Origin: an uncultured Candidatus Saccharibacteria bacterium
GTDB lineage: Bacteria > Patescibacteriota > Minisyncoccia > Phycocordibacterales > WO2-35-19
DNA length: 42,143 bases
Direction: 5' to 3'
Assembly (NCBI GenBank): GCA_964519145.1
Contig: CAZFHL010000003.1
Location: forward strand, 1-42,143
Shown: positions 1,770-32,171 of the stretch, in pieces
Position numbering within the stretch: position 1 is the stretch's first letter
Layout of the letters: every line of letters starts with the position of its first letter
Notes under the pieces: model-generated
Seen by the model: the letters and a program-made list of their open reading frames with translations, nothing else
What the model was told of the DNA's origin: nothing
Database searches by the model: none
Translations under genes and position numbers: made by a program

Positions 1770-1812
1770 CCCCCGCATTGGTTTTCGGACCGGTGTGGGG
1801 TTTTCTTTTTTT
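1770..1812 (+). terminator. intrinsic terminator of the G+C-rich gene
   Basis: cccccgcattgg..ccggtgtgggg stem (G-U pairs allowed) ending at 1800, followed by ttttcttttttt. Confidence 0.65.
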
Positions 1813-1926
1813 ATTTTATATTAAAAACTTTTAGCATATTGATTATCCACAAATTATTGTTGAAAATATATTTATTAAGAGTATATTTTATGGTGTAATT
1901 ATTAGTATTATTAAAAATTAACAAAT

Positions 1927-2613: not shown

Positions 2614-2635
2614 ATTAAGTTTTTAAATTTAAACT

Positions 2636-2668
2636 AAAAAATAGCCTTTTCAGGCTATTTTTTAGTTT
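2636..2668 (+). terminator. intrinsic terminator
   Basis: aaaaaatagcc / ggctatttttt hairpin (atagcc 2641-2646 with ggctat 2653-2658) plus a T run. Confidence 0.7.
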
Positions 2669-2713
2669 TCCACAGATAGTCCACATATATAATTTTTTCT
2701 ATATAATTTATGC

Positions 2714-2741
2714 TTGACATATTTTAAAATCCGATTATACT
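2714..2741 (+). promoter_or_regulatory. candidate promoter upstream of the 23S-5S unit
   Basis: TTGACA (2714-2719), 16-nt spacer, TATACT (2736-2741), about 410 nt upstream of the 23S 5' end. The leader in between is hairpin-rich. Confidence 0.4.
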
Positions 2742-3425
2742 TACGGGTACATATGTTGATTATGTTGATTAATTATAGAGCGTATAAAAGGTGAATATCC
2801 TTTTTGTTTTTGTAAACACGCTCTATAAGAAAGAGCGTTTTTTGTTTAAAAAATTCAATATCCTCATATTTTAAAAATCTAAACATTTTTAGAAGATGAG
2901 GGTAGAGAATACAGTTTTGTTTGAGAGAATGAATTTTGACAAATAACCCTAAAAGTCTGAAAAGATGATTAGGTATATGCCATTGCAACATCGCTTTTAG
3001 ATTAAAATCTAAGGGGTCTTTGTTTGTTGTAAATGGAAAAACTATATAGACTTTTTATTTGGTCTTATATAGCAGAGTAAAATAAAATAAAAATCAATTA
3101 TTTCTTCAAGATGATTGATTTAAAATATTTCTAAAACATTCAGAACAGAGTTGTTCTGGTGGATAGGAAGTTAAGAGCATATGGTGGATGCCTTGGCTAG
3201 AAAAAGCGATGAAGGACGTGAGCTGGCTACGATAAGCTTCGGGGAGGTGCCTAGCAACCTTTGATCCGGAGATGTCCGAATGGGGAAACCCAACTTGCTT
3301 GCAAGTTATCCTGAGCGTAAGCGAAGGATGCAAACCCTGGGAAGTAAAACATTTCAGTACCAGGAGGAAAAGAAACCAAAAAGTATTCCGTAAGTAGCGG
3401 CGAGCGAAAGCGGAGAAGCCCAGAG

Positions 3426-3560
3426 CGTGCGAAACACATAGTTTGTAAAGTTAAAAGTTCATAAAGTTCATAAAGTTTTTAAAGTAGAAAATAAAATTTT
3501 TACTTTATAACTTTTTACTTTATAACTTTATAGACTTTGTGATTTATGTGTTTCGCATGC
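3426..3560 (+). repeat. long AT-rich palindromic hairpin (ataaagt family) inserted in a domain I variable helix of 23S
   Basis: gcgtgcgaaacacata / tatgtgtttcgcatgc base stem encloses arms built of ..ataaagtt.. / ..aactttat.. repeats. The core aaagtttttaaagta-loop-tactttataac is shared with the hairpins at 8356-8452 and 8614-8709. Confidence 0.75.
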
Positions 3561-3767
3561 AGTTGTAAGACGACAACTTCGTATTTATACGAGGAAAGTT
3601 ACAAAATTATTTATTAGAAGAAACTTCTGGAAAGAAGTACCCTAGAGGGTAATAGTCCCGTAATTTAAAATAAATAATCTTTCTTGTTGTTGTTCTTGAG
3701 TACCTCGAGACACGAGTAGCTCGGGGGAATCTACCGGAACTAACCGGTAAGGCTAAATATTTTTCTA

Positions 3768-3809
<42 letters not shown>

Positions 3810-3870
3810 GCCCGGTGAGGGCGGTGAAATAGACCTGAAACTATATGCTTACAAGGAGTCAGAGCGGGTT

Positions 3871-4156
3871 GCATAATGTATAAAATTTTACTCTAAATAA
3901 TGGGGAGATGGAGTCACCCAATCATTCAGAATGGAAAACTAAAAGGAATCTTGGATTAAGACAAACAGCAGTCGCGCTCTGTTGGTTTTGACCAAGAAAG
4001 ACAGAAAGATTATTCTGGGTCATTTTTGGTTGGGTTAAGTTTCCAATACATGAGCTCATGTTTGGTAACAAAATCCTATCATTCCCAGGGGTAGGATTGT
4101 TCTGCAGAGCAATCCTACCCACCCATTATTTAGAGTAAAATTTTTATATATTATGC
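3871..4156 (+). other. intervening sequence (IVS) in 23S helix 25
   Basis: gcataatgtataaaattttactctaaataatgggg (3871-) and cccattatttagagtaaaatttttatatattatgc (-4156) form a ~35-bp stem. It replaces the tip of the helix between caaggagtcagagcgggtt and agtccgtcatggcgtgcc (E. coli ~540-550 region, a classic IVS site). The 210-nt core is itself hairpin-rich, e.g. gggtaggattg..caatcctaccc. Confidence 0.8.
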
Positions 4157-4817
4157 AGTCCGTCATGGCGTGCCTATTGAAGAATGAGCCAACGAGTTAA
4201 TTTATGCGGCTTGCCAAAGCAGTCGACCTGCAGAGGCTAAGTGAAAGCGAGCGTGAATAGCGCGCAATTTGTCGTATATATTAGACCCGAAGCCAGGTGA
4301 GCTTGCCATGGGCAGGGTGAAGTCATTCGAAAGAATGATGGAGGCCCGAACCGGTTGGTCGTGCGATTCCTTCGGATGACCTGTGGTAAGGAGTGAAAAG
4401 CTAATCGAACCTGGTAATAGCTGGTTCTCTCCGAAAGAGCTTTTGGGTTCGCGTCATGCGTTCCTTGCGGGGGTAGAGCACTGGAAGGTCTCGACAGGGA
4501 GAAATCTCGCGAGACCTATCAAACTCCGAATACTGCAAGTAAAAAGTATGACAGTTAGACGGCGGGGGCTAAGCTCCGTTCGTCAAAAGGGAAACAGCCC
4601 AGATCTCTATTTAAGGTCCCTAAATCATAGCTAAGTACACTTAAGGTGGTGACATTTCTCCGACAATGAGGAGGTTGGCTTAGAAGCAGCCATCCTTTAA
4701 AGAAAGCGTAACAGCTCACTCATTCAGAGATTTTGCGCCGAAGATAATCGGGGTTAAGCTATGTACCGAAACTGAGGGTTTGTAAACCTCATCAAAGATT
4801 TGTTCTTTTTGTTTTGT

Positions 4818-4905
4818 GGGGGGATGGCGGAATTGGTAGACGCAACGGACTTAAAATCCGTTGGATATTATATCCGTACGGGTTCGATTCCCGTTCCCCC
4901 TACCA
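4818..4905 (+). tRNA. tRNA-Leu (anticodon UAA), class II with long variable arm, CCA encoded
   Basis: Hand-folded cloverleaf:
- acceptor gggggga/tccccct (G1-U72 wobble)
- D arm gcg-gaattggtaga-cgc
- anticodon stem acgga/tccgt with loop cttaaaa
- variable arm ggata-tta-tatcc
- T arm acggg-ttcgatt-cccgt
- discriminator a, then cca. Confidence 0.85.
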
Positions 4906-4923
4906 CCACTTTTGGTAGAAAGT

Positions 4924-4999
4924 GGGCTTATAGCTCAATGGTTAGAGCAGTCGGCTCATAATCGATTGGTTCTCGGTTCAAGTCCGAGTAAGCCCACCA
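4924..4999 (+). tRNA. tRNA with CAU anticodon (elongator Met or lysidine-dependent Ile2, not initiator), CCA encoded
   Basis: Hand-folded cloverleaf:
- acceptor gggctta/taagccc with a paired 1-72
- D arm gctc-aatggtta-gagc
- anticodon stem gtcgg/tcgat with loop ctcataa
- T arm ctcgg-ttcaagt-ccgag
There is no GGG/CCC run in the anticodon stem, so it is not an initiator. Confidence 0.8.
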
Positions 5000-5040
5000 G
5001 TTTCTTCTAAAAGTTTGGTGAAGGTGTCGGTTTGGTATGT

Positions 5041-5116
5041 GGCCAGTTAGCTCAGATGGAAGAGCAGTGGCCCGATAAGCCACAGGTCGTAGGTTCGAGC
5101 CCTACACTGGCCACCA
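5041..5116 (+). tRNA. tRNA-Ile (anticodon GAU), CCA encoded, with C instead of U at position 33
   Basis: Hand-folded cloverleaf:
- acceptor ggccagt/actggcc
- D arm gctc-agatggaa-gagc
- anticodon stem gtggc/gccac with loop ccgataa
- T arm gtagg-ttcgagc-cctac. Confidence 0.8.
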
Positions 5117-5932
5117 AAATCCAAACAATTTTGACACAATTTTTTTCTGATTTTTTGAAAATCGGATCTTTGATGAGGTTTACAAGCGGTAGGAGAGTAT
5201 TCATAACCGCAGTGAAGCTGAAGGGGTGACCCACAGTGGAGCGTTATGAAGTAAGAATGTTGGCACAAGTAACCACAATGACGCTGAAAACGCGTCACGC
5301 CGAAAGACTAAGGTTTCCTTTCCGATGTCAATCAGGGAAGGGTTAGTCGGTCCTAAGGAGATGACGAAAGTCGCATCCGATGGATTCACGGTTAATATTC
5401 CGTGACCTATATATATTTCGATGGAGGGACGGAGTGTAGTATGCAAAGCACATTATTGGATTTGATGTCTGTGTTGTAAAAATGTTGTGTAGGAAAATCC
5501 GCATAACTTGTTTTAATACAAAATTTAAGCAATATAGCAATTTGGAACTTCGGTTCTGAAGAGTTTGCAAAGCGCGCTTCCAAGAAAAACTTCTAAGATT
5601 AAATATATGTAGACCGTACCGTAAACCGACACAGGTAGTCAGGTCGAGAAGACCAAGGCGAACGAGTGAGATGTCCCCAAGGAACTCGGCAAAAAAGCGG
5701 CCGTACCTTCGGTATAAGGCCTGCCCCACACAAGTGGGGCCGCAGCTAAAGAATCCCTGGCGACTGTTTATCAAAAACACAGCTCCCTGCGAACTCGTAA
5801 GAGGATGTATAGGGGGTGACACCTGACCAATGCCAGAAGGTCAAACAACGACGTTGTGAGAGTCGCAAGATTTTCATGGTGATTGTTGTAAGCCCTGGTG
5901 AATGTCGGCAATAACTATAATTGTCCTAAGGT

Positions 5933-6170
5933 TTTGAGAATTTCATTTAATGAAGTTTTCAAAAGGACTGGGACAGTTATAGAGATAAATAGTTAGACAA
6001 AATTTAAGAGTAAAGAGACAAAATAAAGTTAGTTACACAAAAAAGAAGCTACCTAAATTACAGTAATGTAGTTTTAGTCCAAACATGACAAACAAGCGCA
6101 CCAACGTCATGGTCCCGAATCCCGCTAAGCGGGAAGGGAAAAGATAGAGTCCAACTTGAAGGAATAGTTG
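5933..6170 (+). mobile_element. group I intron at 23S site equivalent to E. coli 1931 (ORF-less, 238 nt)
   Basis: The exon reads cctaaggT|...G|agcgaaattcc and rejoins to the universal CCUAAGGUAGCGAAAUUCC. The 5' exon ends in U and the intron ends in G. A J8/7-P7-like motif aagatagagtcc lies at 6141-6152. The P1 guide was not confidently located. Confidence 0.65.
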
Positions 6171-6292
6171 AGCGAAATTCCTTGTCTGGTAATTGAATTG
6201 CCAGTTTCGAGAGCGATCTCGATAAAAAATTCGGCTTATAACGGTGGAGCCCGACTCGAAAGAAGGGTAATACCGTGGGAAGTTGTTCAGTA

Positions 6293-6427
6293 CTAATTTT
6301 TGGAAAGAAGAAAACCCCTCAGGGTTCTCTGGGGGGGTTTAGGATCGCGATTTGCCCAATATGTAACAATCGCAGAGATTATTACAGCTAAAAAAGGTAG
6401 GATCAAAAAAAGCGATTCGTTGTTCAT
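6293..6427 (-). CDS. small hydrophobic peptide (44 aa) encoded antisense to the rRNA: MNNESLFLILPFLAVIISAIVTYWANRDPKPPQRTLRGFLLSKN
   Basis: ATG at 6427 is preceded by gagga plus 7 nt. The peptide has one predicted TM helix followed by a basic tail. It uses the same frame as track ORF 6293..6475, whose listed start is the TTG of the -35 box. An imperfect GC hairpin plus a T run overlaps the last codons. Confidence 0.5.
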   Translation of the reverse strand: MNNESLFLILPFLAVIISAIVTYWANRDPKPPQRTLRGFLLSKN

Positions 6428-6445
6428 GTAGGTATCCTCTGGAAG

Positions 6446-6475
6446 GATATAAACATAGCAGAGATTAATTGTCAA
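6446..6475 (-). promoter_or_regulatory. candidate promoter of peptide A
   Basis: Minus strand: TTGACA (6475-6470), 18-nt spacer, TATATC (6451-6446). The -10 element is only moderate. Confidence 0.4.
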
Positions 6476-6577
6476 TAATATTTTGACTCCAAAAATTAGT
6501 ACTGAATTAACCCCGTAACGACTTATGTACCACTAACTAGTGGCGCATAGATAGCTTAGGTAATACAATTATATTGT

Positions 6578-7063
6578 ATGAACAGCTATAACACGCCGAC
6601 TCTGCGAAGAGAGCTCGCAAACTACATCTCCGGATATGTTGATGGAGAAGGATGTTTCTCTGTTTCGGTATCGAAACGAGAGAAATTAAAAATCGGATGG
6701 GAAGTGAAGCCAAGTTTCTGTGTCGGTCAAAATTATGATCGGCGCGAAGTACTTGACCTCATGATTGTTTACTTCGGTTGCGGTCATATACGCCGCGATT
6801 GGGGAGACAGAACCCTGAAGTATGAAGTGAGAAAGATTAACGATCTCTTAGAGAAAGTCATTCCACACTTTGAAAAATTTCCTTTAAAGTCAGCAAAGCA
6901 AAAAGATTTCCTGCGGTTTGCAGAAATCTGCCGTCAGATGAAAGTTTTAGAGCACCACAAAGTGAGCGGTTTGAGAAAAATTCTCAAAAGCGCTTACAAG
7001 ATGAATGGATCAGGGAAGCGCAAGTTACCTTTATCCATGATTCTCAAAACAATTCGCAGATGA
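6578..7063 (+). CDS. LAGLIDADG homing endonuclease (single-motif, homodimer type)
   Basis: 161 aa with LANYISGYVDGEGCFSV (LAGLIDADG motif) near the N-terminus. It lies inside the group I intron, and its stop codon overlaps the intron core motif. Confidence 0.85.
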   Translation: MNSYNTPTLRRELANYISGYVDGEGCFSVSVSKREKLKIGWEVKPSFCVGQNYDRREVLDLMIVYFGCGHIRRDWGDRTLKYEVRKINDLLEKVIPHFEKFPLKSAKQKDFLRFAEICRQMKVLEHHKVSGLRKILKSAYKMNGSGKRKLPLSMILKTIRR

Positions 7064-7446
7064 AGATATAGTCTAATGCCTACAGTAATGTGGGGTAGGA
7101 GATTCTGCTCGCGCGGGCAGAATAGTCAAACTCAAATGAAGTTCAGACGCGCACGAATGGTGTAACGACTGGGGAACTGTCTCGGGGACTCGCTCGGTGA
7201 AAATACAGTACCGGTGAAGATGCCGGTTACCTGCAGTTAGACGAAAAGACCCCGGAAGCTTTACTGTAATTTGGCATTGAGGATATGTTTTTACTGCGTA
7301 GCATAGGTGGGAGGATTTGAAGTTTGCCTTTTGGGGCAGATGGATCCGTCAGTGAAATACCACTCTGTATTGACATATTTTCTAACCTGTTCGGCAAAAA
7401 CGGACAGAGACAGTGCCTGATGGGCAGTTTTAGTGGGGCGCTATCC

Positions 7447-7492
7447 TTCAGTATTTAAAATTTAAAAAGATTTAATTTTTTTGAATACTGAA
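7447..7492 (+). repeat. small cargo-less hairpin related to the cassette terminal repeats
   Basis: ttcagtatttaaaa.. pairs with ..ttttgaatactgaa. The arms resemble the outer repeats of cassette A (ttcagtact) and cassette B (attcaaa). It sits at the very 5' end of the L2262 intron. Confidence 0.5.
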
Positions 7493-7635
7493 TCCATGGC
7501 GCCTCCAGAGATTTGTCATCTCAAAACAAACAAATAAGGGGGACCATAGAGCGAAACCTCTATGAGAAAAGTTAGCTATATGCTGAGAAATCTCTTTGAG
7601 ATAATCAGCAGGGAAGTTAAATATTCAAATTTTTG

Positions 7636-7668
7636 GAAAAAGAAAATGCCAGCTCTTACGCGACTGGC
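7636..7668 (-). terminator. terminator-like hairpin after peptide B
   Basis: Minus strand: gccag-tcgcgtaagag-ctggc followed by attttcttttt. Confidence 0.45.
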
Positions 7669-7679
7669 TTACGGTCTTG

Positions 7680-7829
7680 TTAGATGAGTTGGAACTTTCG
7701 GAAAAAGCCAATGAGGCAAAGACCGAAAATCAAAGGAACGGTGATCACCACAAAAACCATCTGATCTTGGTGGTGTTGGGGATGGGTCAATGAATGCTGG
7801 TGACCCAACCCAACCAACGCTAACCACAT
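7680..7829 (-). CDS. small peptide (49 aa) encoded antisense to the rRNA: MWLALVGLGHQHSLTHPQHHQDQMVFVVITVPLIFGLCLIGFFRKFQLI
   Basis: AAGGAG, 6 nt, then ATG (7829); stop taa at 7682-7680. The peptide has a His/Gln-rich head, one hydrophobic helix and a basic tail. It is in a different frame from track ORF 7669..7878, which starts at the TTG of the -35 box. Confidence 0.55.
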   Translation of the reverse strand: MWLALVGLGHQHSLTHPQHHQDQMVFVVITVPLIFGLCLIGFFRKFQLI

Positions 7830-7849
7830 AAGGAACTCCTTTCGTGGTC

Positions 7850-7878
7850 ATTATGGCAAAACAATGACTTTTTGTCAA
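7850..7878 (-). promoter_or_regulatory. near-consensus promoter of peptide B
   Basis: Minus strand: TTGACA (7878-7873), exactly 17-nt spacer, CATAAT (7855-7850). Confidence 0.6.
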
Positions 7879-8355
7879 GCAAATCTTGACTCCAAAAATT
7901 TGAATATTTAATCCTTCAGAGACTAAACGCTAACCTTCTTGAAAAAGAAGATGATATAGTCCGAACTTTGTGGCGACACAAAGAGTAATAATTTATCCGT
8001 TAGTTATTGATTAACACAATGCCTAAAGAGTAACGGAGGAGCCTATTAAGGTCAGCTAGGCGTGAATGGAAACCATGCCGATAGTGTATAGGCACAAGCT
8101 GGCTTAACTGCAAGACGTAAGTGTCACGCAGATGCGAAAGCAGAGCTAAATGAACCGATCGTCCGCGTTAGACGCGGCGAAAGATTATCTGACAAAAGCT
8201 ACTCCGGGGATAACAGGCTGGTACTGCCTAAGCGTCCAGAGCGACGGCAGTGTTCGGCACCTCGATGTCGGCTCATCTTATCCCGGGGGTGGAGAAGCTC
8301 CCAAGGGTATGGCTGTTCGCCATTTAAAAAGATACGCGAGCTGGGTTCAGACCGT

Positions 8356-8452
8356 ACAGAAGTTATAAAGTTAAAAGTTTGTAAAGTTTTTAAAGTAAGG
8401 GAATTAATTTTTTACTTTATAAACTTTATAAACTTTATAAACTTTCAACTGT
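8356..8452 (+). repeat. AT-rich palindromic hairpin (ataaagt family) in the P1 loop of the L2593 intron
   Basis: acag (8356-8359) pairs with ctgt (8449-8452). The right arm contains tttataaac x3 in tandem. The core is taaagtttttaaagta-loop-tactttataaac. Confidence 0.7.
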
Positions 8453-8613
8453 TGTGCAATCTGAATCCCTTCGAGAAATTATAAATAATTTTGTTTTAGT
8501 TTTTTCGTTTTAAAATTATTAAAGATATCAAGACTTTAATAATAAATGTTAGTAGATACCCGCCTTAGCTAAAAAAGCTATGGCGGGCGATGCAATCAAA
8601 TCACGGCGGTCCG

Positions 8614-8709
8614 ATGATTTATAAAGTAGAAAGTCCGTAAAGTTTTTAAAGTAAGTGCAAAATGTATTTACTTTATAAACATTATAACTTTAAAAACTTT
8701 ATGAATCAT
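8614..8709 (+). repeat. AT-rich palindromic hairpin (ataaagt family), P2 position of the L2593 intron
   Basis: atgatttataaagt pairs with actttatgaatcat. The core is gtaaagtttttaaagta-loop-tactttataaac. Confidence 0.7.
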
Positions 8710-9081
8710 TGGAATAAGTTGACTTATATCGGTGAAGTCCAATTTGGATAACACCGAGGGAACCGCGTCTGACGCGGACCCGTAGAGACTAAACGTCAAC
8801 AATTTGTTTTCTTTTGTAAGAGGTGAGGGGAGAATAAGCAATCAGTCAACCCAAACGACGAAGTATGTCGGACTGTATTTGCAGTTTCCATTTTGCAAAA
8901 AATGGATTCCATGCGTGCCACGGTACCCTCCCTCCTCTCTTACAGAGGAAAACAGATTAAGCTATAGTCCATTGCCACAAGTAATTGTGGGGTTCCGCCT
9001 TCGCTAAAAGCTATGGCGGACAAATCAAGCGTGAGACAGGTTGGTCTCCTATCTACTGCAGGCGTTGATTCTTGAGGGGAT

Positions 9082-9112: not shown

Positions 9113-9476
9113 TGACCTCTGGTGTGCCTGCTGTTCTGCCAAGAGCATCGCAGGGTAGCTAAGTCGGGAAAGGATAACCTCTGAAAGCATCTAAGAGGGA
9201 AGCCCACCCCAAGATTAGGAATCGTTAAGGATCGTGAGAGATGATCACGTTGATAGGCGCTAGGTGTAAGTATTGTAAAATATTAAGCCGAGGCGTACTA
9301 ATTTTCCGATTTCTTTCCACCAGAAACATTTTGTTTCTGTTTTTAGAAAATTTTACTCTGCTATATGGGACTTTCAAGTCTTATAATTGTTTTTTTAAAT
9401 AAAATATATAAATAGATTTATTTCAAAAATTCTCGCAAGAAAGACTTTTGAAAGAGATTTAATATTTGAATATTGT

Positions 9477-20066: not shown

Positions 20067-20193
20067 TTTCAAAAGTCGTCGCAAGTGTAGTTTTTGATAG
20101 ACTTGCGCAAGGTTGACTCTACCGACCATAGCAAAAAATCAGCAGATTTTTATGTGTGTCTATCAAAAACTATACTAAGAAAGATTTTTGAAA
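20067..20193 (+). repeat. 127-nt two-stem palindromic element, copy 1 (type E1)
   Basis: Outer stem tttcaaaagtc/gatttttgaaa, 10+10-nt internal loop, inner stem tagtttttgatagac/gtctatcaaaaacta, and a 55-nt apical region. The reverse complement recurs at 26810-26936 with about 6 differences. Confidence 0.85.
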
Positions 20194-20258
20194 TATCGTA
20201 CGGTTACAAGTTTGACTTTTTTGTGAAATTATATATAGTCTTTTAAGGGAGTTCATTT

Positions 20259-20981
20259 ATGCTAGAAAGAACAGGAAGAGCTTTTGAAAGACTTTTCATT
20301 GGGAGTAGCACTGATTTAGATTATCTTTTCGAGCAAAAGTATGATATTCCAGAATTAAAATCAGGAACAGATTTTGCACGCGATGTTCCTAAATTTATCA
20401 AAGCGTCTAAAAAACTGGGAATCAGATGTCCAAATACGCCTATTGCTAAAAGGATGTTTTATGGTCTAAAAAATAGACTAACTAAAATTTTAAAGAGAGA
20501 AGTTGATCTTTGGTTTTTACCGACCGGAAATGTAGAAGAGGGTACTTTTTTAGACGCTTTCCATTATACAGATGTTGTAATTCATATTTCTGGGATAAAT
20601 ACTATTTTAACTCTTGATTTGTATTATGTAGAAAATGAAATAATTGATTTTTTAAAGGAAAAGTGGATCAAGAGTTTTAATAGAAAAACTTGGTACACAG
20701 AAGCAAATTTTCAAGACGATTTGTTTAGATATAAAAAAGGATTGAAAGTTGTAAAAAAGCTAATAAAAGCAAAATTAGGTGGAAGAGAAGCTTCTTTGTT
20801 TCCAATTGAAAAATCTGATTTAGAAATCAGGGATCTCAGTGTTTTTAGACCGAGTAATCATTTTATTGTGACTCCAGATCATATTTCAGTCAGGCGCAAA
20901 AGATTAAATTTTCTCAATTTTCTGGCAAGGTATTATGTTGATTTGGTAAAGATAGAAGAAGGAGGTCTTCCTTATGGTTGA
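20259..20981 (+). CDS. hypothetical protein (240 aa)
   Basis: ORF with RBS aagggag and an upstream TTGACT..TATAGT. No recognisable motif. Confidence 0.6.
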   Translation: MLERTGRAFERLFIGSSTDLDYLFEQKYDIPELKSGTDFARDVPKFIKASKKLGIRCPNTPIAKRMFYGLKNRLTKILKREVDLWFLPTGNVEEGTFLDAFHYTDVVIHISGINTILTLDLYYVENEIIDFLKEKWIKSFNRKTWYTEANFQDDLFRYKKGLKVVKKLIKAKLGGREASLFPIEKSDLEIRDLSVFRPSNHFIVTPDHISVRRKRLNFLNFLARYYVDLVKIEEGGLPYG

Positions 20982-21017
20982 GCCCAGTTTTTGCTTCGCA
21001 AAAACTGGGCTCTTTTT
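20980..21017 (+). terminator. strong intrinsic terminator
   Basis: 15-bp stem gagcccagtttttgc / gcaaaaactgggctc with a 3-nt loop, then ttttt. Confidence 0.85.
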
Positions 21018-21122
21018 ATACATGAATTCCCAAATATCCAATTCAAATTTACCTTTAAATATATACATATTTTCTTAAATTATTTATAAAATTTAATATT
21101 TTATAAAATAGTACAATAATAC

Positions 21123-21150
21123 TTGACAAAAATATACAAATGTGTATAAT
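21123..21150 (+). promoter_or_regulatory. consensus sigma70-like promoter of the second G+C-rich gene
   Basis: TTGACA (21123-21128), 16-nt spacer, TATAAT (21145-21150). Confidence 0.6.
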
Positions 21151-21238
21151 ATATATCAGATTTGATTAGTTCTTGATGGGGTTGAAAAACCACATTAGGA
21201 ACAGATTGAAAAGATTAGAATAGAAAGAAGGATAAAAA

Positions 21239-22630
21239 ATGAACATCGACATGAGTGCGGCGTTGGCCAAGGCCAACACAATCGTTGCCCGGCCGAAGCC
21301 GGTGGAAGATCTCTCGGTCGTCTTGCTACGCAAGGCGAATGGGCTCTTGCATACATCAAACGTTAACGCAGAGTTCGGCCAAATCATGGCCGCTCTGCCG
21401 GCGTTGAATCAGGAGCAAGTGGCTCCGGTCATGTCTGCGCTCTTTACCGCCGTCAAGGAGAGGGACGGACTCAATAAGTTCTCGGTCGTCTCCCAGCTGA
21501 TGGAATATCAGTCTGGGGGGGCGGATGAATATGCGCTTAAGGCCTTCATGGATTGGGACGGCCAAACGGTCGGGGTCTTTGACCCCGAAACAGGGAACTA
21601 CGCCGAGGGGAAGAATGGCGTAGCGACGCCGTGTATGGCGGTTCGCTACTTGGCTGGACGGAACGAAGGTTTTCTTCCCGTTCTCGCCAAGTTGAAGGAA
21701 GACTTCGGCGCCGCGTTCGACAATGATGGTTATCAGGTGTGGCCGACCACACTCATCGCTGGCCTCTACGGCCCGAAGTATTGTGCGCCGGTTTTCAACC
21801 CGGCCCACAATGACCGGCATGATGGCGGGACGCTGATCCCGAAGACGAATTACCTCGCGGTCAGAATCCCCGAGGAGATTCGAAATAATGTCCGGATGCA
21901 GTCGGCCGGAGAGATTCTCCGGAACGGTGGAAAGCAAAATGATCCGGATCATCCACTTGCGCACACTGGCAGGATTCAGCCGGACCTGAATTACCTGGTC
22001 TGCGCCGGGATGACGAATGAGCAATTTATGAGGTTGCTCAATCTGATGCTCGGGTACGCACGATGCGGGGTATACGCCCTTGATATGAGGGGCATCATTG
22101 GTCGGCTGGTTCACCACAAGGCCTTTACGGCCGGAGTGGGGATCGCCGGGCAAATATTGAAGTTCCTCAATGGGACCGTAGGCGAGTATGGAAAGCCTGG
22201 CCCTGGAATCGAAATCCTCAAGCTCCTTTCGACTTGGGCGCTAGCGTCGAATAAGTCCATGGGTGATGAGAACAAGGAGCTCTTCGATGTCGCTTTCGCT
22301 CGGTTTAAGGACAACCTTGGGATTAAGAAGGTTGTCCAGGATCATGAGCCTCTTCTCCCAGAGGAGCCCCTGCCGGTGGCCAACAAGAAGGCCAACAAGA
22401 AGGCCGATGGGAAGAAGGGCGAGAGCAATGATCATCGTCAGAAGCCTCGGGCTCCGAAGCCCGAGGTGAATGACCGGCGTCTCCGTCGTCAGGAAGACGA
22501 CGAGGAAGACGAGGGCGGTGTCGGTGCTTCTTCGGGAGAGGGTGTTGCACCATCCCTGCCTCGGCAGGTGGTGGTGAATAACGCCATGGCCACGCAGTTG
22601 GCCGCTCTCGGGCTCGCTCCGAAAAAGTAA
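21239..22630 (+). CDS. G+C-rich orphan protein (463 aa) with a charged low-complexity C-terminal tail, function unknown
   Basis: RBS gaaggataaaaaATG. 35 of the first 60 nt are G/C, against 11 of 60 in the promoter region just upstream (my count). The tail is ..KKANKKADGKKGESNDHRQKPRAPKPEVNDRRLRRQEDDEEDEGG... No motif recognised. Confidence 0.7.
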   Translation: MNIDMSAALAKANTIVARPKPVEDLSVVLLRKANGLLHTSNVNAEFGQIMAALPALNQEQVAPVMSALFTAVKERDGLNKFSVVSQLMEYQSGGADEYALKAFMDWDGQTVGVFDPETGNYAEGKNGVATPCMAVRYLAGRNEGFLPVLAKLKEDFGAAFDNDGYQVWPTTLIAGLYGPKYCAPVFNPAHNDRHDGGTLIPKTNYLAVRIPEEIRNNVRMQSAGEILRNGGKQNDPDHPLAHTGRIQPDLNYLVCAGMTNEQFMRLLNLMLGYARCGVYALDMRGIIGRLVHHKAFTAGVGIAGQILKFLNGTVGEYGKPGPGIEILKLLSTWALASNKSMGDENKELFDVAFARFKDNLGIKKVVQDHEPLLPEEPLPVANKKANKKADGKKGESNDHRQKPRAPKPEVNDRRLRRQEDDEEDEGGVGASSGEGVAPSLPRQVVVNNAMATQLAALGLAPKK

Positions 22631-22747
22631 CTTCGGCGGTGCTGGTGTTTCTTGAGGACATCCCTCAACGATTCGCTGGGACCCGAAATTGTTGGTGTAT
22701 AGTCTTGATCAAATGGTTGATTAAGGCTAAGTAGTTTGTTTGGTAAC

Positions 22748-22785
22748 ACGCCGGCTCTGAAAAGAGCCGGCGTTTTCATTTTTTA
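22748..22785 (+). terminator. intrinsic terminator of the G+C-rich gene
   Basis: acgccggctct-gaaa-agagccggcgt followed by tttcatttttt. Confidence 0.85.
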
Positions 22786-22830
22786 TAAAAACATTAAAAT
22801 TTAATATTTGAATGTTATAAAAATAAAACA

Positions 22831-22962
22831 TTTTACATAAACTATTGAGTGGTACTAGTATTTCTGTGCCTTGCGAGTCTCGACGGAGCGAGCACGAGGA
22901 ATTTTTCACCAGAAAAATATCCGTGCACAGAAATACTAGTACCCGAGAGAGATTATGTAAAA
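22831..22962. repeat. 132-nt two-stem palindromic element (type E3), same architecture as E1
   Basis: Outer stem ttttacataa/ttatgtaaaa, 10+9-nt internal loop, inner stem ggtactagtatttctgtgc/gcacagaaatactagtacc (19 bp), and a 55-nt apical region. Confidence 0.8.
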
Positions 22963-24543: not shown

Positions 24544-26724
24544 ATGGATGATAAAAATAAAAATGATATAACATATTTTGCAGAAACAGATGCAAGAAAC
24601 AAAAAAATTAAATTTGGTATAAGGGCTGAAGATCGTCTTCGTCATTTTTATTCTATTGGAAAAACAGGTATGGGTAAATCTACTTTGCTTGAAAATATGG
24701 CTATTCAAGATATTCAAAATGGTGAAGGGATGGCTTTTCTTGACCCCCATGGCAAGACAGCTGATTTACTTCTTGATTATATCCCAGAACACAGAATAAA
24801 AGATTTAATATATTTTGCTCCTTTTGATATAGAAAATCCAATCTCTTTTAATGTGATGGAAGATGTGGGGGCAGATAGGAGGCATTTGGTTGTTTCTGGT
24901 CTTATGAGTGCTTTTGAAAAAATATGGGTAGACGCTTGGAGCGCTAGAATGGCATACATTTTGCAAAACACTTTAGCGGCTTTGCTTGAATACCCTGGAG
25001 CTACGATGCTTGGAATAAATAGAATGTTGTCTGACAAAATTTATCGTCAAAAAGTGGTAGATAATGTAAAAGATTCAACCACAAGATCCTTTTGGGTAGA
25101 TGAATTTGCAAAATATACAGAAAGATTTGCAGCTGAAGCAACTCCCGCTATTCAAAATAAAGTAGGGCAGTTTACCTCAAATCCACTTATTAGAAATATC
25201 ATAGGTCAAGCTAGATCTTCTTTTGATATAAGAAAAATAATGGATGAAAAAAAGATTTTAATAGTAAACCTTTCTAAAGGTTTGGTGGGGGAGAATAATG
25301 CAAATCTTTTGGGTTCAATGATTGTAACTAAAATATATTTGGCCGCCATGAGTAGAGCAGACGCTTCTCCCGCTGAATTAAAAAGATTACCAAATTTTTA
25401 TTTATATGTAGACGAGTTTCAATCTTTTGCTAACAAAAGTTTTGCCGATATTTTATCAGAAGCTCGTAAATATAAACTGTCTCTAAATATTACTCACCAA
25501 TATATTGAACAAATGGCAGAAGAGGTGAGAGCGGCCGTTTTTGGAAACGTTGGTACTATGGTTACTTTTAGGGTAGGTTCTTATGATGCTGAACTTTTAG
25601 AAAAAGAATTTGCGCCAGTTTTTACAATGGAAGATATTGTGAACCTTGGTTTTGCTCAGATATATTTACGATTAATGATAAATGGTGTTGCTTCACAACC
25701 TTTTTCAGCAACCACACTTGCTCCTATTTCAAAACCAGAAAAAGTTTTTAGAGAGGAGGCTCTTAAATATTCAAGACAAACATATTCTCATAATAAAACA
25801 GAAGTAGAGCAATCTATAAAAGATTGGTATTTGCCTGATACAAAAAATATAGATACCACAAAAGGTGATGCAAACAATAAATCTGCAAAAGAGGTTCCAA
25901 AAAGGGATTTTAAAGATGCTCCAAGGGGTTTAAACCCTGATGCCTATAAACATGTAGTGGATTCGTTTAAAGGTAAAGATATAGTTAAAAATGATGCAAA
26001 AGTAGAAGATAAACCAATTTCTGAAAGTATTGATAAAATTGAAAATCCTGTGGTTAAAAAAGAGCCAACTATTAGAGATCAAATAAATATAAATATTGAT
26101 AAACAAAAAGTTTTTACTAATCCTCAAAATGTTCCAAATAAACCACCAATATCTCTATCTGTTTTAAATGAAGATAAAAATAAAAACAAAAATGCTAAGC
26201 CAGAAAGTGTAAATGCGCTAAGAGATGCTCTTTTAAAAATACAGAGTAAAGATGGGGCTGTTAGTCCTGAAAATAAAAAAGAGACTACTTCAAATAATGT
26301 GGCCATACAAGACTTAAAAGATAAAATAAGTCAAAGCAAGATAGAGACGCCAAAAATAGAATATAAACCAGTTGAGCCTGTACAAATTAAAGAAATAGAT
26401 ATTCAAAATAAAAATTCTTTTGAAGATAAAAAAAGCCCTGAGAAATCAGAAAGTCCTAAAATAGATTTACCAAAAATAGAGGTTCTAAAAAAACCAGATA
26501 TAGTTAGTACTCCTCTTGATAAGGAGAAAAATAAAGTTGTACAACAAGAGCCTGTTCAAATTATTAGACCAAGTATTCCTGTAGAAAAAATATCTATAGA
26601 TACTCAAACTAAAGTTCCAGAAAATCCACCAAAGAAAGATGAAAGTTTTAATTCAAACACTTTTATTAAAACAAAGGAGATACCAGAAGATTTGTTGAGA
26701 AAAGTTTTAAACGGAGAAAATTAA
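24544..26724 (+). CDS. TraD/VirD4-like (type IV coupling protein-like) P-loop ATPase with a long Lys/Pro/Glu-rich C-terminal tail
   Basis: Walker A IGKTGMGKSTLL, Walker B-like FYLYVDEFQSFA, and LNITHQYIEQM. No N-terminal TM segment. The last ~300 aa are low complexity. Confidence 0.65.
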   Translation: MDDKNKNDITYFAETDARNKKIKFGIRAEDRLRHFYSIGKTGMGKSTLLENMAIQDIQNGEGMAFLDPHGKTADLLLDYIPEHRIKDLIYFAPFDIENPISFNVMEDVGADRRHLVVSGLMSAFEKIWVDAWSARMAYILQNTLAALLEYPGATMLGINRMLSDKIYRQKVVDNVKDSTTRSFWVDEFAKYTERFAAEATPAIQNKVGQFTSNPLIRNIIGQARSSFDIRKIMDEKKILIVNLSKGLVGENNANLLGSMIVTKIYLAAMSRADASPAELKRLPNFYLYVDEFQSFANKSFADILSEARKYKLSLNITHQYIEQMAEEVRAAVFGNVGTMVTFRVGSYDAELLEKEFAPVFTMEDIVNLGFAQIYLRLMINGVASQPFSATTLAPISKPEKVFREEALKYSRQTYSHNKTEVEQSIKDWYLPDTKNIDTTKGDANNKSAKEVPKRDFKDAPRGLNPDAYKHVVDSFKGKDIVKNDAKVEDKPISESIDKIENPVVKKEPTIRDQININIDKQKVFTNPQNVPNKPPISLSVLNEDKNKNKNAKPESVNALRDALLKIQSKDGAVSPENKKETTSNNVAIQDLKDKISQSKIETPKIEYKPVEPVQIKEIDIQNKNSFEDKKSPEKSESPKIDLPKIEVLKKPDIVSTPLDKEKNKVVQQEPVQIIRPSIPVEKISIDTQTKVPENPPKKDESFNSNTFIKTKEIPEDLLRKVLNGEN

Positions 26725-26770: not shown

Positions 26771-26995
26771 GAGAGGTACTAGTATTCCTGTGCACTGATA
26801 TTAAATCTCTTTCAAAAGTCTTTCTTAGTATAGTTTTTGATAGACACACATAAAAATCTGCTGATTTTTTGCTATGCTCGGTTCAGTCAACCTTGCGCAA
26901 GTCTATCAAAAACTACACTTGCGACGACTTTTGAAAGAGGCCATCTTTTTGCTAAAAAATTCCTGCGAAGCTGTTTCAGTCAAACTCGCTAGGCT
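26771..26995. repeat. degenerate E3-type element split by insertion of E1 copy 2
   Basis: ggtactagtattcctgtgcac (26775-26795) matches the E3 arm ggtactagtatttctgtgcac. After the E1 insert, taaaaaattcctgcgaagc...caaactcgctagg (26951-26992) aligns with the reverse complement of the E3 apical region (gaaaaattcctcgtgctcgc...gagactcgcaagg). Confidence 0.55.
26810..26936 (-). repeat. 127-nt two-stem palindromic element, copy 2 (type E1, inverted relative to copy 1)
   Basis: Reverse complement of 20067-20193 apart from about 6 substitutions, clustered in gctcggttcag versus ggtcggtagag. Its own outer stem tttcaaaagtc/gacttttgaaa is perfect. Confidence 0.85.
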
Positions 26996-27071
26996 TCAAA
27001 AAGGTATGATTTCAACGAGTTTTGTAATTCACATACTTCTCTTATTTGTCTTTTTTTGATAATATCTTTTT

Positions 27072-30615: not shown

Positions 30616-32171
30616 ATATAATTGATTTTGGTAGCGATAAAAAAATATTTGAAAATAATTCAAAAGTTAGATTGAGAAAGATTGAATATGGAAAATTATT
30701 TGATTTTTTAGATATATTAATTTTTTCTAGAAGATCTAATGGAACACAAAAGACAGATAATATAAGCTTAAATGTGAATGCATATTCAATTAGTTATAAA
30801 AATATATTTAAGATTTTTTATAATAGTCTTAAAAAGATTAGTGAAATAATTAAGAAAAATAATGGAAAAACTATAATCTCAACTCAAGATCCATTTGAGT
30901 CTGGGTTTGTGGGATTGTGCACCAAAATATTTTATGGCATTCCTCTTCATATTCAACTCCATACAGATTTTATAAACAAAAATTTTATATTTTCTTCCAT
31001 TTTAAACTTTATCAGATTTATTTTAGGTCACATAACAATACCTTTTGCTGATTCAGTCAGAGTGGTTTCTTTAAGATCTAAAAATAATATTTCTGATCTG
31101 AATGATGAAATAGATATTTTACCAATATATACAGAGATAGAAGACAAAATAAATTTTGTTAGAAATTTTGAACAAAAAGATAAATTAGTTTTTATAACCG
31201 TTGCTAGATTGGAACAAGAAAAAGATATAGAAACTTCTATTTATGCTTTTAAAAAGTTTATAGATAATGGAAGAAAAGGGTTTTTTAACATAGTAGGAGA
31301 TGGAAGCTTAAAAGATAAACTCGTGTATTTGGTCAAAAAATTGAATTTAGAAGGCAAGGTAAATTTTTTAGGTTGGCAAAATGATACATCGAAATTTTTT
31401 GAAGAGGCAGATATTTATATTTGCAATTCAATTTTTGAAGGTTATGGTATGTCTTTGATAGAGGCAGGTGCTTATGGACTCCCTATTATTTCTACAAATG
31501 TTGGTATTGTTGGAGATATTTTTATTCAGCATTCTGATATTTATAAATCTAGTTGTTTGGTTATAAATAAAAATAATATTGAAGATTGCTCAAATAAAAT
31601 GATTTTACTTTCAGATGATTTATTTTTAAGAAAAAGTTTGGGATTAAATAGTAGGGAATCAGTGAAGAACTCTTTTCATTCAAAAGAGGATTATTTAATA
31701 AATTATAAAAAAAATATAGAAAAGTCGTTGGATACAAAAATTTCTAAGTATTTCTTAAAAAGACTGTTAGATTTTCTTTTTGCTGTTTTAAATCATAATA
31801 AAATTTTGAGGTTTATTTTGGTCGGAGGTTTTGTGGCTTTGACTCAAATTTATTTGCTTTATTTTCTGACAGAAGCCATTGGTTTTTGGTATCTAATGTC
31901 ATCTATTTTATCTTTTATATATGCATGTATTGCAAGTTTTGTTTTACAAAAATACTGGGCGTTTAGAGATAAAAATAAAAAAAATATAATTAGCCAATTT
32001 ATTAAATTTATAATAGTGGCATTGATTGGTATCAGTATAAATACAGGGTCTATGTATTTATGGGTTGAAATAATTGGTATTTGGTATGTTTTAGCCCAAT
32101 TTATAACAGGCTTTATTGTAGCAATTATAAATTTTATGATTTATAAGTTTTTTATATTTAAAAAAATATGA
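30612..32171 (+). CDS. glycosyltransferase family 4 fused to a C-terminal GtrA-like 4-TM domain
   Basis: GT4 block NSIFEGYGMSLIEAGAYGLPIISTNVGIVGDI, then LRFILVGGFVALTQIYLLYFL...QKYWAFRD...YKFFIF, typical of GtrA-family membrane domains. Confidence 0.7.
   Translation: MNIIDFGSDKKIFENNSKVRLRKIEYGKLFDFLDILIFSRRSNGTQKTDNISLNVNAYSISYKNIFKIFYNSLKKISEIIKKNNGKTIISTQDPFESGFVGLCTKIFYGIPLHIQLHTDFINKNFIFSSILNFIRFILGHITIPFADSVRVVSLRSKNNISDLNDEIDILPIYTEIEDKINFVRNFEQKDKLVFITVARLEQEKDIETSIYAFKKFIDNGRKGFFNIVGDGSLKDKLVYLVKKLNLEGKVNFLGWQNDTSKFFEEADIYICNSIFEGYGMSLIEAGAYGLPIISTNVGIVGDIFIQHSDIYKSSCLVINKNNIEDCSNKMILLSDDLFLRKSLGLNSRESVKNSFHSKEDYLINYKKNIEKSLDTKISKYFLKRLLDFLFAVLNHNKILRFILVGGFVALTQIYLLYFLTEAIGFWYLMSSILSFIYACIASFVLQKYWAFRDKNKKNIISQFIKFIIVALIGISINTGSMYLWVEIIGIWYVLAQFITGFIVAIINFMIYKFFIFKKI

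Follow-up and report, generated by a model that had tools for sequence, protein, structure and literature searches.

Several described systems resemble the element family analyzed here in part. REP/REPIN sequences (RAYT) are, like this family, abundant, enzyme-less intergenic palindromes that are orientation-free and clustered, form long hairpins and rely on a factor encoded elsewhere; however, their arms are conserved and their loop is variable, while in the family it is the apex that is kept across phyla, and each copy has arms of its own. Inspection of copies by eye showed neither a GTAG nor a CGTC tag, and stretches of up to 8 kb around the matches held no recurrent cluster with a RAYT (TnpA-like) gene. 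Bacterial MITEs (Correia, ERIC, RUP and BOX) share with the family a length of 100-150 nt, hairpin formation, nesting or clustering and an association with contig breaks, but the family has neither family-wide terminal inverted repeats nor a short target-site duplication, and its core shows strand-specific, RNA-like covariation and is conserved over phylum-level distances. Integron attC sites and the folded attP of CTX phage resemble the family in that structure rather than arm sequence is kept, that one strand is the functional one, that the sites lie at gene ends or at the borders of foreign DNA, and that the hairpin can mimic a target duplex. On the other hand, the R''/R' core sites are missing from the family (1/37), its apex is conserved and not variable, and neither an IntI gene, a Xer-type (dif-like) site nor a cassette array was seen near the copies. 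Islands that integrate into tRNA genes are matched by one part of the family, class 2, in the direct repeat running from the T-loop to the 3' end and in the co-orientation with the tRNA; in class 2, however, only ~110-150 nt lie between the repeats, with no integrase or cargo, and a conserved folded junction adjoins the downstream repeat. Orphan structured RNAs, including the twister and hammerhead ribozymes, likewise combine a multi-helix junction, invariant junction and loop nucleotides and covarying stems with optional stem insertions and many dispersed and clustered copies; the family differs in having no convincing Rfam model, in a closing stem that is an unusually long perfect palindrome, and in being known here from sequence alone. 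For IS200/IS605 ends, omega RNA and IS110 bridge RNA, no tnpA, tnpB or IS110 recombinase cluster was found next to the copies. TIGR arrays of the Tas systems of CPR consist of tandem 36-nt units with 9-nt spacer pairs and box C/D flanks (PMC12045711), and we rejected this assignment since the copies are dispersed, 80-150 nt long and not tandem.

The window, i.e. the whole 42,143-nt stretch of DNA that was analyzed, holds four copies of the family, E1, E1', E3 and Z, which are listed below together with a core-less relative.

20067-20193, plus strand: E1, a class-1, two-tier copy of 127 nt, read from the sequence
20067-20077 / 20183-20193: outer stem of E1, 11 bp including one G-T
20088-20102 / 20158-20172: inner stem (P1) of E1, with internal loops of 10+10 nt
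20103-20157: core/apex of E1, 55 nt
20134-20151, plus strand: P3 mini-hairpin of E1, AAAAAUC-AGCA-GAUUUUU, from the sequence and the 25-nt pattern match, with family-wide covariation
22831-22962, plus strand: E3, a class-1, two-tier copy, read from the sequence
22831-22840 / 22953-22962: outer stem of E3, with internal loops of 10+9 nt
22851-22869 / 22925-22943: P1 of E3, 19 bp, perfect
22870-22924: core/apex of E3, 55 nt; the 3' internal loop of E3 is CGAGAGAGA
26810-26936, minus strand: E1', reverse complement of E1, 127 nt, 97% identity; its sense strand is the minus strand
26946-27032, minus strand: 5' half of Z, read from the sequence (25.5 bits with covariance model R1 at 26928-27003), with outer arm GTGAATTACAAAACTC and loop GUUGA, then the inner arm and a core that breaks off after the first five A in the 3' strand of P3 (...AGCA-AAAAA)
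26775-26802, minus strand: 3' half of Z, with what remains of the 3' strand of P3, then AUCAGUG and an arm that shares 93% identity with the E3 3' arm
9421-9453, plus strand: core-less relative of the E1 outer hairpin, UUUCAAAAAU-UCUCGCAAGAAAGA-CUUUUGAAA

Direct reading of the coordinates confirmed the two-stem layout that an earlier sequence-only reading had described for E1, E3 and the stretch at 26810-26936. The latter had been listed as a second site of E1; it is the reverse complement of E1, so that E1 and E1' form inverted repeats around 6.6 kb. The outer stem of E1' reaches out to 26807-26939 (CTC/GAG), and P2 of E1 is slightly decayed relative to that of E1' (GGU..ACC followed by GAC, not GAG). 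When G-U pairs are counted, the inner stem of E1 comes to ~22 bp and the internal loop is then only 5'-GUCGCA / 3'-AAGAAA. The mini-hairpin occupies nt 32-49 of the apex in both E1 and E3; the A-T flips reported between the two (AAAAATC versus ATTTTTC) do preserve pairing, although there are four of them and not five. Both apices had also been said to start with cttgcg, but in E1 this motif straddles the last stem base. The RNA folds of E1, E3 and E1' ranged from -50 to -58 kcal/mol (E3, -56 kcal/mol) with z-scores of -7.7 (-7.65 to two decimals), -10.2 and -9.4, respectively; 0 of 200 shuffles folded as well, and DNA folding parameters gave the same outcome. The two strands of E1 folded at -50.4 and -40.8 kcal/mol, and E1' folded at -58.2 kcal/mol on the minus strand versus -51.6 on the plus strand. 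A 25-nt pattern drawn from the E1 and E3 apices matched the window at these three places only (0 expected). Covariance models recovered further copies beside the seed copies and, in the window, Z; with model R1, E3 had the top score in the window (83.9 bits), and E1' and E1 scored 67.4 and 63.1 bits. Z is interrupted within P3 by E1' plus its 16 flanking nt. Its outer arm matches an arm, GTGAATTACGAAA / TTTYGTAATTCAC, of four other loci (L016, L051, L065 and L113), while its 3' arm has no complementarity to its own 5' arm. The core-less hairpin lies 26 nt upstream of the 5S rRNA, folds weakly, and has the 3' flank GAGATTTAATAT in common with E1'.

When the genome collection was searched with the 25-nt degenerate apex pattern, at least 114 stretches were found, against ~2 expected by our own rough estimate for uniform base composition. 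Among the matches listed, nearly all were Patescibacteria MAGs, including Saccharibacteria and Paceibacteria, and viral contigs gave 0 matches to the family pattern; the elements are a very large family of intergenic palindromes that, among these matches, is almost confined to Patescibacteria (CPR). The earlier impression that no known family fits was upheld. Rfam 15 at the gathering threshold reported nothing on the elements in the window or in 18 class-2 loci, and in E-value mode there were far-sub-threshold chance matches only, the best overlap being with mir-3167 (25 bits; threshold, 86). When phages and plasmids were searched by BLAST, only short chance matches came up, and we found no description of the element in the literature. 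An E1-specific 26-mer had 0 matches in metagenome contigs, and neither E1 paralogues nor empty sites were gathered there.

The apex of ~55 nt shared by the copies is a conserved, strand-specific three-way junction. P2 leads from a 3-bp helix through a G(N)A/GA internal loop to a 4-bp helix capped by a GACG loop, while P3 combines 3 bp with a 7-bp A/U hairpin, the loop of which is ANCA, and is followed by GUG; P1, P2 and P3 all covary. The pairs adjoining the mini-hairpin (P3a) were outside the search pattern, and they covary. Among 99 related copies the first of these pairs was G-C in 54 and C-G in 44, and the next was G-C in 64, G-U in 21 and A-U in 12. The four W positions of the P3 stem, whose complementarity the search pattern did not demand, were complementary in all copies except one probable chance match. 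In the class-1 alignment of 38 sequences, P1 was 94% and P3 100% paired, and the covariation score was reached by 0 of 500 shuffles. P2 was misaligned by MAFFT and by first-pass covariance models (~50% paired) and was parsed by script instead; P2b was 4 bp long in 67 of 73 copies with 22 distinct stem sequences, and P2a occurred as UGC/GCA, UAC/GUA, AGC/GCU, AGU/ACU, UGU/ACA, UGG/CCA and others. Strand asymmetry is restricted to the core, where one P3a pair is G-U in 12-21% and essentially never A-C. Four loci (L055, L057, L067 and L093) carry large optional insertions in P2, the two-tier subclass keeps a fixed 18±1 bp from the junction to the conserved internal loop, and the paralogues L068a and L068b differ by compensatory changes. 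Selection on structure, proposed from three copies, is thus borne out far beyond them by the 99 copies and the 38-sequence alignment. We rejected a K-turn, as the bulged strand of the internal loops has 2-4 nt where 5 are needed, and a likeness to hairpin-ribozyme loop A (GUC / AGAA), for which there was no loop B equivalent and no Rfam match.

The junction is the constant part of the family, and the variable part is the hairpin that bears it. In class 1 (E1 and E3) the core is at the tip of a long, near-perfect, copy-specific hairpin, and in class 2 it lies beside a tRNA gene, on the same strand, with a partial repeat of the tRNA after it. Watson-Crick pairs make up 97% of P1, and G-U is no more frequent than other mismatches; an apparent G-U excess that might have served as proof of RNA fell from 20:3 to 8:3 (p = 0.23) after removal of junction-proximal pairs. 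All ten P1 pairs vary, and arms differ among copies of one genome (L004, L033 and L049; L018 and L023). The unrelated stems of E1 and E3 are copy-specific, near-perfect palindromes of DNA type and not compensatory substitutions at homologous positions. The 5' side of P1 is U-rich and the 3' side A-rich, opposite to what a terminator has. These genomes contain many long hairpins, but insertion of the core into pre-existing terminator hairpins was rejected given this opposite polarity and the missing T-tails. No direct repeats above background (longest 6-12 nt) flank the class-1 copies, and their termini are not conserved.

Copies are intergenic, often near stop codons, and are found nested and clustered. 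E1' lies within P3 of Z, nesting or duplication was also seen in L007 and L063, and copies found by the covariance model alone cluster 40-120 nt from seed copies. The placement of copies 3' of plus-strand genes, as seen in the window, did not extend beyond it, since orientation relative to flanking genes was random across 118 copies and 19 copies lie between divergent genes. Synteny with L122 stops at secF, directly upstream of E1, and in secF relatives at ~50% identity no element follows the gene. The 6.6-kb segment between E1 and E1' is non-syntenic, carries an ORFan of 55% G+C and holds no recombinase. At L047, a 3-kb island encoding TIR and SLATT proteins is flanked by a 155-180-nt repeat that starts inside the core and runs ~100 nt past the element. 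Up to 4 kb on from any of 118 copies, the ORFs included no recurrent recombinase, and neither a transposase, an integrase nor any other gene that recurs was found in this range, and only housekeeping families recurred among neighbor proteins, at ≤7 loci each.

A tRNA gene lay within 300 nt of 21 of the 34 class-2 copies, on the same strand in 20 of the 21, as compared to only 2 of 86 class-1 copies. The ~110-150-nt insert of class 2, and of class 2 only, is flanked by 19-29-nt direct repeats that span the tRNA from its T-loop to its 3' end, as in attachment sites; the repeats are exact in L013, L037, L025, L032 and L061 and shorter or diverged in others. These inserts contain no integrase, and no more distant repeat of the tRNA 3' segment was found within the loci, except for a tandem pair in L047. 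X', which lies 5' of the core, is complementary to the tRNA-derived repeat, 5' tRNA fragments ending in the D-loop precede the copies in L122 and L102, and a terminator-like hairpin after the tRNA often precedes class-2 copies. An identity of class 2 with tRNA, tmRNA, SRP or RNase P was rejected, as the P3 loop has 4 nt, no tRNA model matches the elements, and tmRNA genes lie elsewhere in the same loci.

The explanation that we favor, at a probability of roughly 45%, is that the family consists of non-autonomous repeats that work in the form of a folded single strand and are recognized by a factor encoded elsewhere. The structure and its covariation, the taxonomic spread, the clustering and nesting of copies and the tRNA linkage are observed; mobility, a single-stranded active form and a factor in trans are inferred from them. 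The element would be kept in the genome as DNA, its arms maintained as near-perfect palindromes, and would act as RNA or single-stranded DNA, the conserved junction of which may be recognized by a factor encoded elsewhere in the small genome; this factor is hypothetical because no candidate gene recurs within 4 kb of the 118 copies. New copies would come to lie between genes, within other copies, or in or next to tRNA genes, part of the tRNA becoming duplicated in the last case, and the dispersed copies could become recombination substrates at the borders of variable DNA. Several observations speak against the repeat-element explanation: copies within a genome are old and diverged, not burst-like (L004, L033 and L049); MITE-like DNA does not usually keep a 25-nt core over phylum-level distances; empty sites of class 1 were not found; and any source of the long copy-specific arms is hypothetical. 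Moreover, an orthologous copy in two species was 98% identical while the adjoining spacer was ~55-60% identical, indicating purifying selection on individual copies, which suits a functional RNA at least equally.

Such an RNA, a multi-copy structured family whose junction binds a conserved protein or is catalytic (e.g. a new self-cleaving ribozyme class), with the long hairpin as a stabilizing or processing stem and the DNA-level features secondary, is the main rival, possible though somewhat doubtful. The RNA-type paths at P3a (G-C, G-U, A-U), the strand-specific fold, helix lengths that vary around fixed junction and loop nucleotides (GACG, G(N)A/GA, ANCA and GUG), the P2 insertions, the fixed junction-to-loop spacing, the L068a/L068b changes and the better-kept orthologous copy all favor it, as does a spread like that of twister and hammerhead motifs, which are multi-copy, clustered and orientation-free in distribution. 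However, no conserved promoter was seen, an internal promoter in perfect-palindrome arms would fire into both strands, and with random orientation read-through would be antisense in half of the copies. P1, with its Watson-Crick content and no G-U excess, is unlike RNA helices; perfect double-stranded RNA of 20-45 bp would be an RNase III substrate; and class-2 copies often sit behind the terminator-like hairpin. Rather unlikely, in our estimate, is a new kind of mobile element with the junction as its active module, this module being either a catalytic RNA or a single-strand structure recruiting an unrecognized enzyme; such an element would target loops in folded nucleic acids (the T- and D-loops of tRNA, hairpin tips, P3 of other copies), use the sequence 5' of the core as a guide pairing with the target, and make its long perfect arms by copying the flank; a new CPR-specific self-cleaving ribozyme class is allowed equally by the evidence.

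Repeats from the tRNA T-loop to the 3' end are the layout expected of tRNA-integrating elements. Together with the strict co-orientation with the tRNA, the complementarity of X' to the tRNA repeat, by which the fold mimics a target duplex, the L047 repeat beginning inside the core, and the bracketing of non-syntenic DNA by E1 and E1', they suggest a hairpin recombination site, functionally analogous to attC or the CTX-phage attP, whose folded strand would present a duplex for a recombinase to join to tRNA genes or to other targets; the elements would then mark the entry of cassettes or islands. We consider this quite unlikely: no integrase or IntI gene is near any copy, the attC core sites RYYYAAC / GTTRRRY occur in 1 of 37 class-1 copies, the apex is conserved where that of attC is variable, most inserts between tRNA repeats are of only ~110-150 nt without cargo, and homologous (Campbell-type) recombination better accounts for the L047 repeat, which extends ~100 nt past the element. 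An elaborate bidirectional terminator, insulator or mRNA-stabilizing hairpin at gene ends, an option raised in the sequence-only reading, would suit the intergenic position near stop codons and the abundance of long hairpins, but is very improbable, as the U-tract that an intrinsic terminator has directly after its G+C-rich stem-loop finds a counterpart, a T-run behind the hairpin, in only 4 of 37 copies (also 4 of 37 on the other strand), the U/A polarity of P1 is the wrong way round, and 19 copies lie between divergent genes; the terminator scan called neighboring true terminators and not E1 or E3, and a conserved asymmetric 55-nt junction would be superfluous for termination. Most improbable of all is an ssoA-type single-strand origin, a hairpin of roughly 150 nt on a rolling-circle replicon at which RNA polymerase primes synthesis on single-stranded DNA. 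Its motifs are RSB, TTATGCCGAGAAAATTT, and CS-6, TAGCGT/A (PMC4598088), and these are resembled by the 3' internal loop (AUGCCGAGAAAGA-AUUUU) and the start of the core (CUAGCGAG or CUUGCGAG), respectively, size and hairpin form also being similar to the pE194 and pT181 sequences. In ssoA, however, RSB is 5' of CS-6, while here the order is reversed; model R1 found nothing in pE194 or pT181, there were no plasmid BLAST matches, and the elements are chromosomal, occur in many copies regardless of orientation and have no Rep gene with them.

Few known genomes are as small and as streamlined as those of CPR (Patescibacteria), which nevertheless keep many copies of this element of 80-150 nt, with a core that is conserved from Saccharibacteria to Paceibacteria and is not in Rfam. 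Since Saccharibacteria are cultivable and genetically manipulable, the family is directly testable. Given that two short contigs end inside E1, the elements might help explain the fragmentation of MAGs at such repeats. As a functional RNA, the family would be a major class of RNA that has gone unrecognized in a very large lineage of bacteria; as a mobile or recombination element, it could account for the entry of foreign genes, such as the 55% G+C ORFan in the window and the TIR/SLATT island of L047, into reduced genomes.

The conserved apex of the element, or core, folds as a three-way junction of the inner stem (P1) and two arms, P2 and P3, the latter carrying a mini-hairpin and the pairs adjoining it (P3a). 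A covariance model of the element, R1, was built after copies had been collected by pattern, and a scan of the window with R1 returned four copies, E1, E3, E1' and Z.

Element copies and associated features in the window
20067-20193, sense strand plus: E1; outer stem, ~10+10-nt loop, inner stem of 15 bp, 55-nt apex; R1 63.1 bits
22831-22962, sense strand plus: E3; outer stem, ~10+10-nt loop, inner stem of 19 bp, 55-nt apex; R1 83.9 bits
26810-26936, sense strand minus: E1'; reverse complement of E1, 127 nt, 97%; R1 67.4 bits
26928-27003, minus: R1 match to Z, the fourth copy; 25.5 bits
26946-27032, minus: 5' half of Z; outer arm GTGAATTACAAAACTC, loop GUUGA, inner arm, core into the P3 3' strand
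26802-26775, minus: 3' half of Z; last three nt of the P3 3' strand, AUCAGUG, then arm
9421-9453 (9421-9465 with flank): core-less E1 outer hairpin, 26 nt upstream of 5S rRNA
21239-22630: ORFan of 463 aa inside the E1-E1' segment, 55% G+C in a 28% G+C genome

When the window sequence was read directly, E1 and E3 showed the two-stem layout with a 55-nt apex that the sequence-only reading had described, and both carried the 7-bp/4-nt mini-hairpin at apex positions 32-49, but only four A-T pairs, not five as had been claimed, were flipped between the two mini-hairpins. The same reading had listed 26810-26936 as a further copy of E1; this copy is the reverse complement, and so E1 and E1' form an inverted pair with 6.6 kb between them. 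RNA folding of the window elements gave z-scores of -7.7 to -10.2, with none of 200 shuffles folding as well, and DNA folding parameters likewise placed them far beyond chance. The fold of E1 was more stable on the plus strand (-50.4 kcal/mol) than on the minus strand (-40.8), while that of E1' was more stable on the minus strand (-58.2 kcal/mol versus -51.6). The G-U pairs of the core were confined to one strand, which defines the sense strand as plus for E1 and E3 and minus for E1' and Z. Z, whose 5' half is normal, is broken within the P3 3' strand by E1' plus 16 flanking nt. Its 3' arm shares 93% identity with that of E3 and is not complementary to the 5' arm of Z itself. The hairpin at 9421-9465 equals the outer stem of E1, with the two strands of the internal loop joined into one (UCUCGCAAGAAAGA); inner stem and core are missing. 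It has a 12-nt 3' flank, GAGATTTAATAT, in common with E1' and may represent the two-tier element in an empty or deleted state. At 31189-31255, R1 gave a weak match (15.9 bits, E 0.06) that has a UUGC start and arms resembling P1 but lacks a P3 hairpin; this may be a decayed copy or chance.

We searched for relatives with a degenerate 25-mer spanning the mini-hairpin and the next six bases of E1 and E3 (AWWWWTCASCAGAWWWWTATSYGTG). It matched the window three times against zero expected, and at least 114 stretches of a collection holding one genome per GTDB species against ~2 expected, a rough estimate for uniform base composition. Nearly all pattern matches listed came from Patescibacteria MAGs, including Saccharibacteria and many Paceibacteria groups (Nomura-, Kaiser-, Taylor-, Zambryski-, Yonath- and Wildermuthbacteria). 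One match, in Planktophila (L015), looks like chance. The pattern had zero matches in 2.9 million viral contigs, and neither an Rfam search nor phage and plasmid BLAST with the elements gave anything convincing. The suggestion that no known family fits agrees with this, as no earlier description was found in Rfam 15 or in the literature searched; the TIGR arrays of CPR bacteria (PMC12045711) are something different. In two loci, variant cores keep the anti-T-loop 5' sequence but have their modules rearranged: upstream of 1562 in L037 an AGCA-loop hairpin takes the P2 position, and ~350 nt upstream of the match in L107 an AGUA-loop P3-like hairpin precedes a P2-like hairpin. These suggest that the family is wider than the pattern and the model capture.

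The layout common to the extracted copies was P1 - (A)C(A/U)U - UGC - G(N)A - [4 bp, GACG loop, 4 bp] - GA - GCA - (C)NA - GGA - A - [AWWWWUC-ANCA-GAWWWWU] - UA - UCC - GUG - P1'. The four W positions of the P3 stem, whose complementarity the pattern does not demand, were complementary in every copy except the probable chance match, and the two P3a pairs just outside the pattern covaried (G-C 54 and C-G 44 at one; G-C 64, G-U 21 and A-U 12 at the other). In an alignment of 38 class-1 sequences (class 1 being copies with the core at the tip of a long copy-specific hairpin), pairing reached 94% in P1, where all ten pairs covaried, and 100% in P3; the covariation score was reached by none of 500 shuffles, and slid controls were only 31-56% paired. 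An alignment of 73 sequences made by the model agreed with this picture. P2 was misaligned by MAFFT and was therefore parsed by script in the 73 copies. A 4-bp P2b was present in 67 of them, with 22 different stem sequences; 32 copies had GACG as the loop and 12 had GACUG, the 3' flank was nearly always GA-G, and an internal loop placed G(N)A opposite GA. This loop was preceded in 44 of the 73 by a 3-bp P2a, which took the forms UGC/GCA, UAC/GUA, AGC/GCU, AGU/ACU, UGU/ACA, UGG/CCA, CUC/GAG and AAC/GUU. Copies found by the model alone are free of pattern bias, and pairing was kept in all of their variants of P3 (e.g. AAAAGCC-AGCA-GGCUUUU and AUUUGUU-AUCA-AACAAAU) and P3a (GCG/CGC, CAGG/CCUG, CAAG/CUUG). 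The paralogues L068a and L068b showed compensatory differences in both P1 and the outer stem. The covariation in P1, P3 and P3a bears out the earlier claim of selection on structure; the structure of the element and selection on that structure are established.

The family has two architectures. Class 1 accounted for 86 of the 120 pattern matches listed, E1 and E3 among them. Its arms were copy-specific, with up to ~45 bp counted, and beyond the four junction-proximal pairs were 97% Watson-Crick (8 G-U, 3 A-C and 10 other mismatches); they form a DNA-type perfect palindrome, unlike the usual RNA helix. The two-tier form of E1 and E3 was shared by about 17-20 class-1 copies of many lineages; in it, a P1 of 18+/-1 bp leads into a conserved internal loop (5'-GUYGA, 3'-GAGAAA), beyond which lies an outer stem semi-conserved between genomes (GTGAATTACGAAA... 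/ ...TTTYGTAATTCAC). The 34 class-2 matches listed had an extended P3, GGUCGCGGA...UCCGUGACC, and often lay beside tRNA genes: 21 of the 34 had one within 300 nt (20 on the same strand) versus 2 of the 86 class-1 matches, against a background of 5.5% of sequence. The usual class-2 order was tRNA, hairpin, X', core, X, where X directly repeats the stretch of tRNA that runs from T-loop to 3' end (19-29 nt in L013, L037, L025, L032 and L061, extending 10 nt past the tRNA in L013) and X' is complementary to X. In L122 and L102 a 5' tRNA fragment ending in the D-loop precedes the copy and an intact tRNA lies downstream. Both classes occurred together in three genomes (L007, L032, L034). Many CPR tRNA genes (in L007, L064, L092, L095, L108 and others) have directly behind them a very long, near-perfect hairpin of 20-33 bp with a loop of 3-6 nt, whose 5' arm takes in the final 8-10 nt of the tRNA; hairpins of >=16 bp numbered 80 in 911 kb.

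Element orientation relative to flanking ORFs was random (24 convergent, 23 + 23 tandem, 19 divergent), and no recurrent protein family was found near copies, the best clusters being ABC transporter, DnaK, IleRS and FtsZ. Extra copies clustered beside seed copies, head-to-head in 4 of 6 pairs. Element position was not conserved at depth: L122 is syntenic with the window from the rRNA genes through secF and then runs into a 16S gene, while E1 and the genes after secF in the window have no counterpart there, and no element was found after secF in SecF loci of ~50% identity. In the orthologous loci L029 and L030 of two species, the element was 98% identical and the adjacent spacer ~55-60%. Two short public contigs coding for the same SecF terminate within E1, which we liken to assembly breaks at repeats. 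In the relative L065, secF and the 16S rRNA gene are further apart than in L122 by ~3.6 kb of additional DNA (1078-4740), within which an element copy lies at 4209-4284, ~450 nt before the 16S gene. The 23S rRNA gene of the window also has insertions relative to L122: 405 nt at 4780-5185 with three tRNA genes (Leu-UAA, Met, Ile-GAU; 4818-5116) and 5932-7139 with a 161-aa ORF (6578-7063). The two group I introns lie in further insertions at 7447-8022 and 8362-9026.

Copies were found at the borders of variable DNA in the window E1-E1' segment and in L047. The ORFan in the former has its own promoter, a perfect TTGACA-16-TATAAT at 21123-21150, and its own terminator, which is G+C-rich, at 22748-22773; it had no match in Pfam, PHROG or PADLOC and no homologue in 5.8 billion proteins. 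L047 (1429-4610) has two class-2 copies downstream of tRNA-Tyr, spaced 3,024 bp apart, with a flanking direct repeat of 155-180 nt that starts inside the core, exactly after P2; the enclosed genes (a PGDYG protein, a DUF4231/SLATT 2TM protein and a ThsB-like TIR protein) look like a defence island. The window also codes for a TraD-like protein of 726 aa (24544-26724; phrog_5156, E 7e-59; PADLOC model mad8, E 4e-13); L010 and L046 have close relatives of it (~52% identity) near elements. Another G+C-rich gene of the window (1116-1700, 194 aa) matched no family; a palindrome with 25-bp arms (930-1009) precedes it, and a G+C-rich hairpin resembling a terminator comes after it near 1770-1810.

The terminator offered by the sequence-only reading fails: only 4 of 37 copies have T-tails, and the U/A polarity is reversed. 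The main rival is a multi-copy functional RNA, possibly a ribozyme, as the cross-phylum conservation of the core, RNA-like substitution paths, optional P2 insertions, fixed 18-bp spacing and the conserved orthologous copy would suggest; however, no strand-determining promoter was seen, orientation is random and P1 is not RNA-like, and we consider this explanation rather unlikely. A hairpin recombination site is more doubtful still, the copies having neither a recombinase nor attC motifs. The element motifs resemble RSB and CS-6 of ssoA origins (PMC4598088) but in the opposite order, and R1 found no match in pE194 and pT181.

We favor, at a probability of roughly 45%, a non-autonomous repeat that acts as a folded single strand and relies on an inferred factor encoded elsewhere. 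Such a repeat best joins the nested copy and the near-identical inverted pair with the clustering of copies, the contig breaks and the absent positional conservation, as well as with the attachment-like tRNA duplications and the DNA-type perfect arms. A strand-specific core would also be expected if one strand of this non-autonomous repeat were the active intermediate.
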